Positions 3,291-5,339 of a stretch of 17,376 nt of DNA are shown piece after piece. Every line of letters begins with the position of its first letter. The stretch's first letter is position 1. The position numbers and the translations under genes are program-made. The stretch lies in the IMG/VR virus record IMGVR_UViG_2541047431_000017; one strand, 5' to 3'. The notes under the pieces were generated by a model. It was not told the DNA's origin, did not search any database, and saw nothing but the letters and a program-made list of their open reading frames with translations. This DNA is from a virus (Duplodnaviria; Heunggongvirae; Uroviricota; Caudoviricetes).

Positions 3291-3683
3291 ATGGAGACTG
3301 TTTTTGACGCACTGAAAGCGATGGGAAAAGCCACGTCGGTATAGCTGGCTGCGCGACTTGATATCAGTCGTGAAGAAGTACTGAACGAGCTGTGGGAACT
3401 GAAAAAGGCTGGCTTCGTTGATAAAAGCGTATACACCTGGCGTGTGGCTGATAACAACGTTCAGCAGGAACAGCCAGCGCCAGAAGAAACCACCACGGCA
3501 ACAGAAGCGAAAATCTCAGAGTGCGATTTAACCGCGACGATTGAACAACGCGGACCACAAACGGCGGATGAACTGGCTACGCTGTTCGGTACAACATCCC
3601 GCAAAGTTGCTTCAACGCTGGCAATGGCAATCAGCAAAGGTCGTCTGATTCGCGTAAACCAGAACGGTAAAATTCGTTACTGA
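3291..3683 (+). pseudogene. wHTH (DUF1627-like) phage protein, 5' part: in-frame amber codon and 3' truncation by IS insertion
   Basis: ATG at 3291 with a GGGAGG SD. In-frame TAG at 3342-3344 after 17 codons. The frame then continues (ORF track 3444..3683) to a TGA that is the first three bases of the IS element. Confidence 0.5.
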
Positions 3684-3734
3684 ACCGCCCCGGAAATCCT
3701 GGAGACTAAACTCCCTGAGAAAGAGGTAAACAGG

Positions 3735-4061
3735 ATGACTAAAAATACTCGTTTTTCCCCCGAAGTCCGTCAGCGGGCGATTCGTATGGTTCTGGAAAGT
3801 CAGGATGAATATGACTCACAGTGGGCGGCAATTTGTTCCATTGCCCCAAAGATTGGCTGTACGCCGGAGACTCTGCGTGTCTGGGTTCGCCAGCATGAGC
3901 GGGATACCGGGGGCGGTGATGGTGGGCTCACCAGCGCTGAACGTCAGCGTCTGAAAGAGCTGGAACGTGAAAATCGTGAACTGCGCCGCAGTAACGATAT
4001 CCTTCGCCAGGCTTCCGCTTATTTTGCGAAGGCGGAGTTCGACCGCCTCTGGAAAAAATGA
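3735..4061 (+). CDS. IS3-family transposase OrfA (HTH, leucine-zipper part)
   Basis: 108-aa ORF ([23 protein letters not shown]...[16 protein letters not shown]) typical of IS3-family OrfA. Ends at the A6 slippery run. Confidence 0.9.
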
Positions 4062-4948
4062 TGCCACTGCTGGATAAGCTGCGTGAGCAGTACGGGGTCG
4101 GACCGGTATGCAGCGAACTGCATATTGCCCCGTCAACGTATTACCATTGTCAGCAACAGCGACATCATCCGGATAAACGCAGTGCCCGTGCGCAGCACGA
4201 CGACTGGCTGAAGAGAGAGATACAGCGCGTATACGATGAAAATCATCAGGTGTACGGTGTGCGTAAAGTCTGGCGTCAGTTGTTACGGGAAGGAATCAGG
4301 GTGGCCAGATGTACAGTGGCACGTCTCATGGCGGTTATGGGACTTGCCGGTGTTCTCCGGGGTAAAAAGGTCCGTACGACCATCAGCCGGAAAGCCGTTG
4401 CCGCAGGCGACCGCGTAAACCGTCAGTTCGTGGCAGAACGACCTGACCAGCTGTGGGTGGCTGATTTTACTTACGTCAGCACATGGCAGGGCTTCGTCTA
4501 TGTGGCGTTTATCATTGATGTGTTTGCCGGATACATCGTGGGGTGGCGGGTCTCATCGTCTATGGAAACGACATTCGTGCTGGATGCGCTGGAGCAGGCG
4601 TTGTGGGCCCGTCGTCCGTCTGGCACCATCCATCACAGCGATAAAGGCTCTCAGTATGTGTCACTGGCCTATACGGAGCGACTAAAAGAAGCCGGATTAC
4701 TGGCATCAACAGGGAGTACAGGCGACTCGTATGACAACGCGATGGCTGAGAGCATCAATGGTCTTTACAAAGCGGAGGTAATACACCGTAAGAGCTGGAA
4801 AAACCGTGCAGAAGTGGAACTGGCCACACTAACGTGGGTGGACTGGTATAACAATCGACGATTGCTGGGAAGGCTGGGCCATACTCCTCCGGCAGAAGCA
4901 GAAAAAGCTTATTATGCTTCCATCGGAAACGATGATCTGGCAGCCTGA
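4058..4948 (+). CDS. IS3-family transposase OrfB (DDE catalytic part)
   Basis: 296-aa ORF in the -1 frame relative to orfA. DDE-transposase features (VWVADFTYV..., [16 protein letters not shown]). Confidence 0.9.
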
Positions 4949-4990
4949 GTTCACAGATAAAACACTCTCCAGGAAACCCGGGGCGGTTCA

Positions 4991-5339
4991 TTACTGCATA
5001 CCAGGTGATAATTTACCAGCAGAGCCGAAAGTTGAATCGGTAGCGGAAACCGATGGTAAAGCCTTTCCTCAGCCAGCCGGTGTTGCGTTACCGGTACAGA
5101 AAGATGCAACACAGGAAGATATTAAAACAGAAACTGTGGCGGACATTGTGCAGTCGCTGCCATCGTTTACTGCAACGCGAGAAGATGATTTGATTTTGCC
5201 ATCGCTGCATATGGCAAATCGCGAACTGCGTAGGGCGAAGAATCATGTCCAGAAGTGGGAGCGAGTCTGCGCCGCGCTGCGGGAGCTGAACAAGCACCGG
5301 GATATGGTTGCCGGGATTTGTCGGAAGTCCGGGCAATGA
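4991..5339 (+). pseudogene. 3' part of the IS-interrupted wHTH gene
   Basis: Removing the IS and one TTAC copy joins 3680 to 4995 in frame (...NGKIRY|CIPGDNLPAEPK...KSGQ*). The ORF-track entry 4914..5339 is this frame with an artificial upstream extension into the IS. Confidence 0.5.

Follow-up and report, generated by a model that had tools for sequence, protein, structure and literature searches.

Insertion sequence (IS) IS629 is the main insertion sequence diversifying the genomes of Escherichia coli O157:H7; it prefers prophages, and its variable sites have already been used in strain typing. IS1203 and IS3411 have been described as isoforms of IS629, 3-4 bp are duplicated by the element on insertion, 62% of its copies in four O157:H7 genomes were located in prophages or prophage-like elements, and IS629 has been divided into three sub-types (PMC3271280). 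Members of the IS629/IS1203/IS3411 group, known from Shigella and enterohaemorrhagic E. coli, have an organisation of orfA and orfB in frames 0 and -1, an ALIL pseudoknot, a DDE catalytic triad, 25-bp inverted repeats, TG...CA ends and a 3-4-bp target duplication. According to Nakamura et al. (2021; PMC8112680), the PPompW prophages of Shiga toxin-producing and enteropathogenic E. coli (STEC and EPEC) seem to be defective: they have acquired insertions of IS elements, and a number of their genes are inactivated. The DNA analysed here (the window) is a stretch of 17,376 bp, IMG/VR virus record IMGVR_UViG_2541047431_000017, and corresponds to the whole of draft contig AVRE01000016.1 of assembly GCA_000462425.2. 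A copy of IS629 was identified in it, located within a gene of the DUF1627 (YdaW-type) family. It is, in our judgement, very nearly certain that an intact IS629 transposed into a DUF1627 gene, its frame very probably broken beforehand, of a defective PPompW-type prophage, and that the event is recent and strain-specific. No data contradict this explanation.

The IS apart, the window is 99.7-99.97% identical to a lambdoid prophage region in O157:H7 genomes which encompasses the repressor/cro genes, replication genes, paa, the hok/sok-to-rusA region, tRNAs and lysis genes. In O157:H7 SS NE 1040-1, whose complete genome is the closest, the integrase of the matched prophage adjoins ompW, and the prophage of the window is therefore assigned to the PPompW type, the window matching the early-to-lysis region of the SS NE 1040-1 PPompW at the identities given above. 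The host of this defective prophage is an E. coli O157:H7-like strain. From its relatives, the prophage would be located next to ompW in the chromosome, the attachment site lying outside the window. Within the early-right region, the interrupted gene closely follows the replication genes on their downstream side, and the orientation of the IS is the same as that of the early-right operon. The DUF1627 gene of deposited PPompW phages is 99.9% identical to that of the window, where it differs from other PPompW prophages in carrying IS629 at a site not seen in them. The assembly of a complete multi-copy IS within a contig of 17,376 bp is unusual.

Read directly from the sequence, the element extends over 3681-4990 on the plus strand, is 1310 bp long and possesses 5'-TG...CA-3' ends (first bases TGAACCGCCCCGG, last bases CCGGGGCGGTTCA). 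Over its entire length (1310/1310 bp) it is 100% identical to many RefSeq copies annotated as 'IS3-like element IS1203 family transposase', these being located on chromosomes and plasmids of E. coli O157:H7, O111 and other strains in unrelated sequence contexts, and a match to the element was found in 4253 of 5426 complete E. coli genomes. RefSeq annotation of the identical copies includes an 'AL1L pseudoknot' and a 'programmed frameshift'. The left inverted repeat (IRL, TGAACCGCCCCGGAAATCCTGGAGA) and the reverse complement of the right inverted repeat (IRR, TGAACCGCCCCGGGTTTCCTGGAGA) agree at 22 of 25 positions, in a pattern of 13 matches, 3 mismatches and 9 matches, and the pair was the strongest inverted repeat in an independent repeat search. 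On this evidence the stretch can be identified as an intact copy of IS629 (synonyms or isoforms IS1203 and IS3411; IS3 family). An earlier reading of the same DNA (hereafter the original prediction) had named an IS629-type element of exactly 1310 bp with 25-bp imperfect inverted repeats; label, length and repeats are all borne out. No sequence difference was found between this element and the described IS629/IS1203/IS3411 copies, with which it also shares the organisation set out above, and only its insertion site was not found elsewhere in the collections searched. Judging from its identity to other copies, this copy is presumably active.

Two transposase genes were identified in the element (Table 1). 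The product of orfA aligns with positions 1-86 of the NCBIfam IS3 transposase profile, while that of orfB scores 316 bits against NCBIfam transpos_IS3 (cut-off 160). The predicted catalytic triad of OrfB consists of D136, D195 and E231, with spacings of 59 and 36 residues and a lysine seven residues past the glutamate. The two genes overlap at TGG AAA AAA TGA, which includes a run of six A residues (A6), and a -1 slip at this run would give a predicted OrfAB fusion of 404 aa, consistent with the 'programmed frameshift' annotated on identical copies; the exact slip codon within the run is deduced from those copies. An ALIL pseudoknot spanning the overlap was matched over the full length of the Rfam model (121.5 bits against a gathering score of 50, E = 1.2e-31).

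The mechanism proposed for this copy is taken from established IS3-family biology, the background on frameshifting, copy-out-paste-in transposition and the IS-excision enhancer (IEE) being given in bioRxiv 10.1101/2023.06.07.543989. By this analogy, the OrfAB transposase would be produced when ribosomes shift to the -1 frame at the A6 run, with the ALIL pseudoknot promoting the shift. IS629 would then be copied into a circle in which its two ends abut, and this circle would be inserted at a staggered cut, repair of which would leave the 3-4-bp duplication. The experimentally studied paradigms of the family, IS911, IS3 and IS2, are elements distinct from this one and are likened to it by family membership, not by sequence comparison. 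Their family architecture resembles that of the present element, and copy-out-paste-in through a circular intermediate, together with production of OrfAB by programmed -1 frameshifting, is presumed to be common to all of them.

The bases TTAC, which the original prediction had placed on both sides of the element, are present at 3677-3680 and 4991-4994 on direct re-inspection. At the empty site, as seen in four loci, the 40 bases that precede the IS in the window, the last four being TTAC, are followed without a gap by the 40 bases that come after it, and TTAC occurs once. The ends of the element are fixed independently of its flanks, as the whole 1310 bp is found at 100% identity in many unrelated contexts. 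With the ends so fixed, a 4-bp match between the flanks has a chance of about 1/256, and the comparative data make chance irrelevant as an explanation of it. Formally, TTACTG is repeated at both junctions, since the IS starts with TG and the target continues with TG. A 6-bp duplication was nevertheless rejected, the TG belonging to the IS according to the full-length 100% matches in other contexts, and the true target duplication is read as 4 bp, TTAC. On the preferred reading, IS629 transposed into codon 130/131 of the DUF1627 gene with duplication of this target.

These junctions also bear on whether a multi-copy IS was misplaced during assembly of a draft contig, a suspicion invited by several single-base indels relative to finished genomes and by a junction that is found in no other genome. 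Mis-joined reads, however, cannot duplicate four bases of a unique target: TTAC is single in the relatives, and here one copy stands at either end of a complete IS whose TG...CA termini are precise; the orientation and both junctions are mutually consistent. An assembly artefact is considered very improbable and was rejected on this exact signature of transposition.

The left junction was found in none of 5,426 complete E. coli genomes (0/5,426) and the right junction in none of 50,697 phage records (0/50,697). The exact left-junction 34-mer was not found in metagenome contigs, and an exact look-up of the 141-aa product of a hybrid open reading frame (ORF) at the right junction gave no match. 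Two gene products called by the assembly's own annotation (79 aa and 135 aa) owe their existence to the junctions, and contig AVRE01000016.1 is the sole record for either. The two copies of the target are identical, and neither the IS nor its flanks have diverged. The perfect duplication, the zero divergence and the absence of either junction from the collections searched together support a recent and strain-specific insertion, in keeping with the relatively recent event that had been proposed from the intact duplication.

An old insertion, ancestral to the PPompW prophages of O157:H7 and since lost from the relatives by IEE-promoted precise excision, would leave the same empty sites, and two reports describe IEE and the transposase as promoting precise excision of IS629 in O157 (PMC9943667; bioRxiv 10.1101/2023.06.07.543989). 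Not one of the 5,426 complete genomes keeps the insertion, however, while hundreds have the empty site, and an old copy is at odds with the lack of divergence in the IS and both flanks. The site is also empty in PPompW phages of another serotype (according to PMC8112680), which have GAG at codon 18 of the gene where the window has TAG (see below). One recent insertion is by far the more parsimonious explanation when set against independent excision in all the relatives; on these grounds, parsimony and empty sites that include the GAG-bearing PPompW phages, the ancient insertion was rejected as extremely improbable.

The preferred reading, recent transposition of an intact IS629 in this strain, has several limits. 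Contigs of short-read assemblies usually break at IS copies, so little weight can be given to the lack of the junction in such data. 'Recent' is only relative, with no date assignable. The draft contig shows several single-base indels against complete genomes, so that assembly quality is imperfect, and the activity of this copy as well as its exact slip site are carried over from identical copies.

The gene that received the IS can be followed across it. The upstream frame runs from the ATG at 3291 to codon 130 (TAC, 3678-3680) and is then terminated by TGA at 3681-3683, which forms the first three bases of the IS. Joining of 3291-3680 to 4995-5339 gives 735 nt in one frame, of 244 codons and a stop. 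Pfam analysis showed DUF1627 (PF07789) on both fragments, with 79.2 bits for the 5' fragment and 212.9 bits for the 3' fragment (cut-off 28.1); the domain covers the last 47 residues of the former (profile positions 1-47) and the first 107 of the latter (48-154), so the IS falls exactly between adjacent profile positions 47|48. The joined 735 nt are 100.0% identical to an uninterrupted site in all 30 genomes listed, mostly labelled O157:H7, and 524 records match them at 99% or more. Deposited PPompW phages encode an intact coding sequence (CDS) of 244 aa. A protein search with the reconstructed product yielded 2,724 homologues at E <= 1e-5, the best 120 of which are mostly uninterrupted 'DUF1627 domain-containing' proteins of approximately 244-257 aa. 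The original prediction of a single gene of about 244 codons, split by the element and supplied by it with a stop codon, agrees with all of these results, as does the alignment of its flanks to IS-free relatives (100.0% over 735 nt).

That the flanking ORFs are separate genes with a coincidental in-frame join, as two entries in the ORF list (3444-3683 and 4914-5339) might suggest, has virtually no probability and is refuted by the split Pfam profile, a single DUF1627 domain crossing the junction, and by intact homologues, namely the uninterrupted genes annotated across the site in O157:H7 genomes, the full 244-aa CDSs of PPompW phages and the mostly uninterrupted proteins listed among the 2,724.

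The joined frame is not open throughout. An in-frame TAG occurs at codon 18 (3342-3344), a point overlooked in the original prediction. Three-way alignment showed TAG in the window and in O157:H7 PV15-279 and GAG (Glu) in phage PPompW_14040, and this is the sole difference behind the 99.9% identity to the PPompW phage gene. All 30 empty-site genomes listed (of the 524 records at 99% or more) are 100.0% identical to the TAG-containing query, and a 226-aa CDS called by the Prokaryotic Genome Annotation Pipeline (PGAP) begins directly after this codon. As E18* is common to the IS-free O157:H7 relatives examined, the nonsense mutation very probably predates the IS, which would in that case have landed in a gene that no longer had an open full-length frame. 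The insertion thus appears to be a second lesion in a gene that, like its prophage, was already in decay. In annotation, 3291-3680 and 4995-5339 should be called together as a single pseudogene carrying both lesions, and not as two small ORFs and a hybrid ORF.

YdaW of the Rac prophage and the product of the interrupted gene are members of one Pfam family (DUF1627, PF07789). Phage homologues of the interrupted gene are annotated as 'YdaW family' or 'ydaW', and phage Rac (MN652886) shows approximately 84% DNA identity to it over 61% of the query. A study of predicted E. coli transcription factors whose function is unknown includes YdaW and assigns a MarR-type DNA-binding region to a longer allele of it (PMC9308461).

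The original prediction had also described the gene as encoding a winged helix-turn-helix (wHTH) protein, and this is moderately supported, the fold being plausible with two predicted winged-helix-like domains. At the sequence level, profile matches of this type (HTH_Crp_2, HTH_20 and FeoC of Pfam; ArsR/SmtB, MntR and Lrs14) were all below curated cut-offs, a precomputed PF12840 match is present on many homologues, and a search of PDB sequences with the reconstructed protein returned only MntR, at a non-significant E = 0.51. An AlphaFold2 model was obtained for a 99%-identical homologue (P0001) from a shallow alignment of 31 sequences. Its mean predicted local distance difference test score (pLDDT) is 60, with low-confidence linker regions; two three-helix units, at residues 4-39 and 77-115, are predicted with pLDDT values of 74-83. 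The second unit is followed by a predicted beta-hairpin wing (strands 120-124 and 127-131), and a long C-terminal helix is predicted at 192-243. Foldseek analysis against the PDB showed that the matches listed are nearly all winged-helix proteins (MarR, ArsR/CadC, FeoC, Z-alpha), with E-values of only 0.004-0.04 and none at or below 0.001; the FeoC match has a template modelling (TM) score of 0.85 and a root-mean-square deviation of 1.3 Å over 60 columns. In the model, the insertion point (Y130|C131) would lie at the end of the second-domain wing.

With regard to the consequences of the insertion, the 5' piece of the gene ends at the IS-borne TGA. The 3' piece is without a start codon of its own, and an ATG internal to the IS opens a hybrid ORF that reads into it. 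In the hybrid ORF at 4932-5339, 21 residues encoded by the IS precede the C-terminal half of the DUF1627 protein, the long predicted helix included; a longer version, 4914-5339, is given in the ORF list. The hybrid ORF is a by-product of the insertion. A consensus scan for promoters and terminators over 3200-5500 gave counts not above those of shuffled sequence and, as it performed no better than that, no claim is made on polarity over downstream genes (including paa) or on outward promoters. The insertion may conceivably not be neutral, if transposase read-through were to express a truncated, possibly dominant-negative fragment or if transcription of the downstream paa/adfO gene (6199-6957) were altered; this is very unlikely, and if true would imply a strain with a changed adherence or prophage-regulation phenotype. 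A known element showing known behaviour in a prophage type known to collect such lesions is not new in itself. The event is real and ordinary, and matters little beyond bookkeeping. It adds one strain-specific site that could mark the lineage of assembly GCA_000462425, and it is an example of how a gene of a defective prophage decays in steps, with a nonsense mutation first and an IS insertion second.

Table 1. Features of the IS629 insertion and of the interrupted DUF1627/YdaW-type gene (window coordinates)
Feature	Position	Strand	Basis or remark
5' part (codons 1-130) of disrupted DUF1627/YdaW-type gene	3291..3680	+	DUF1627 positions 1-47 stop at junction; 100% to uninterrupted genes
In-frame TAG nonsense codon, codon 18 (E18*, GAG -> TAG), very probably predating the IS	3342..3344	+	Three-way alignment; empty-site genomes
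Target-site duplication, left TTAC	3677..3680	.	Read directly; single TTAC at empty site in loci L001-L004
Complete IS629/IS1203 insertion sequence (IS3 family), TG...CA ends	3681..4990	+	Full-length 100% identity
IRL, 25 bp	3681..3705	+	22/25 against reverse complement of IRR; top inverted pair
orfA, 108 aa, helix-turn-helix (HTH) DNA-binding part of transposase	3735..4061	+	Pfam HTH_Tnp_1, E = 2.4e-12
ALIL pseudoknot, predicted frameshift-stimulating RNA structure across orfA/orfB overlap	4016..4132	+	Rfam RF01497
A6 run (AAA AAA), presumed -1 slippage site, just 5' of orfA stop codon	4053..4058	+	Sequence and frames
orfB, 296 aa, DDE catalytic domain, -1 frame relative to orfA	4058..4948	+	Pfam HTH_21 and rve, E = 9e-28
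Hybrid ORF, 135 aa, start in IS, through IRR into 3' fragment	4932..5339	+	Called as gene in source assembly
IRR, 25 bp	4966..4990	+	Inverted-repeat search and direct reading
Target-site duplication, right TTAC	4991..4994	.	Read directly; single TTAC at empty site
3' part (codons 131-244 and stop) of disrupted DUF1627 gene	4995..5339	+	DUF1627 positions 48-154, E = 2.6e-63
Example junction 30-mer, one of the two junctions: GGTAAAATTCGTTACTGAACCGCCCCGGAAATCC			

Other copies of IS629 were observed in related prophages. In O157:H7 PV15-279 (locus L001, 1921-3230), an independent IS629 in the opposite orientation is located in the neighbouring DnaT-like replication gene. Its site corresponds to window position ~2520-2522, about 1.16 kb upstream of the window insertion, and its flanking alignments overlap by 3 bp, likely a 3-bp duplication. 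The early region of this prophage thus appears to have been a repeated target of IS629. In strain CV261, another close relative (locus L004, 257-1512), a copy of IS629 splits the exonuclease/exoribonuclease region of the prophage, which lies upstream of what the window covers; this makes three independent sites of IS629 in prophages of the PPompW type.

Directly downstream of the DUF1627 gene, a further decayed gene was identified: window ~5505-6040 (ORFs 5469-5780 and 5786-5947) corresponds to fragments of a 'fimbrial protein' pseudogene which is annotated in relatives as frameshifted and with an internal stop. Approximately 1.2 kb downstream of the IS, an intact ORF of 252 aa (6199-6957) possesses an SBP_bac_11 domain and is annotated in near-identical genomes as the AcfC-family adhesin Paa (AdfO), a virulence-associated cargo. 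A sok antitoxin RNA (7146-7295; Rfam, 103.9 bits) was identified beside a hokD toxin gene annotated in relatives, the two being a type I toxin-antitoxin module within the prophage. Furthermore, two tRNA genes (Ile and Arg in relatives) lie within window 11921-12532, followed by the small RNA (sRNA) STnc100 (12263-12471, 175 bits) and, on the opposite strand, the anti-GcvB sRNA AgvB (12473-12532), whose score of 56.6 bits is just at the gathering score of 56.

In comparison with the finished genome of SS NE 1040-1, single-base indels (one of them of two bases) occur at window positions 11505, 14535, 14822, 14977, 15374 and 15684, and these could be draft sequencing errors or real late-gene frameshifts. 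A cluster of 15 substitutions in 76 bp (13288-13363) relative to the same genome falls in a gene annotated in relatives as SASA family carbohydrate esterase/DUF6645, and looks like a small recombination patch.

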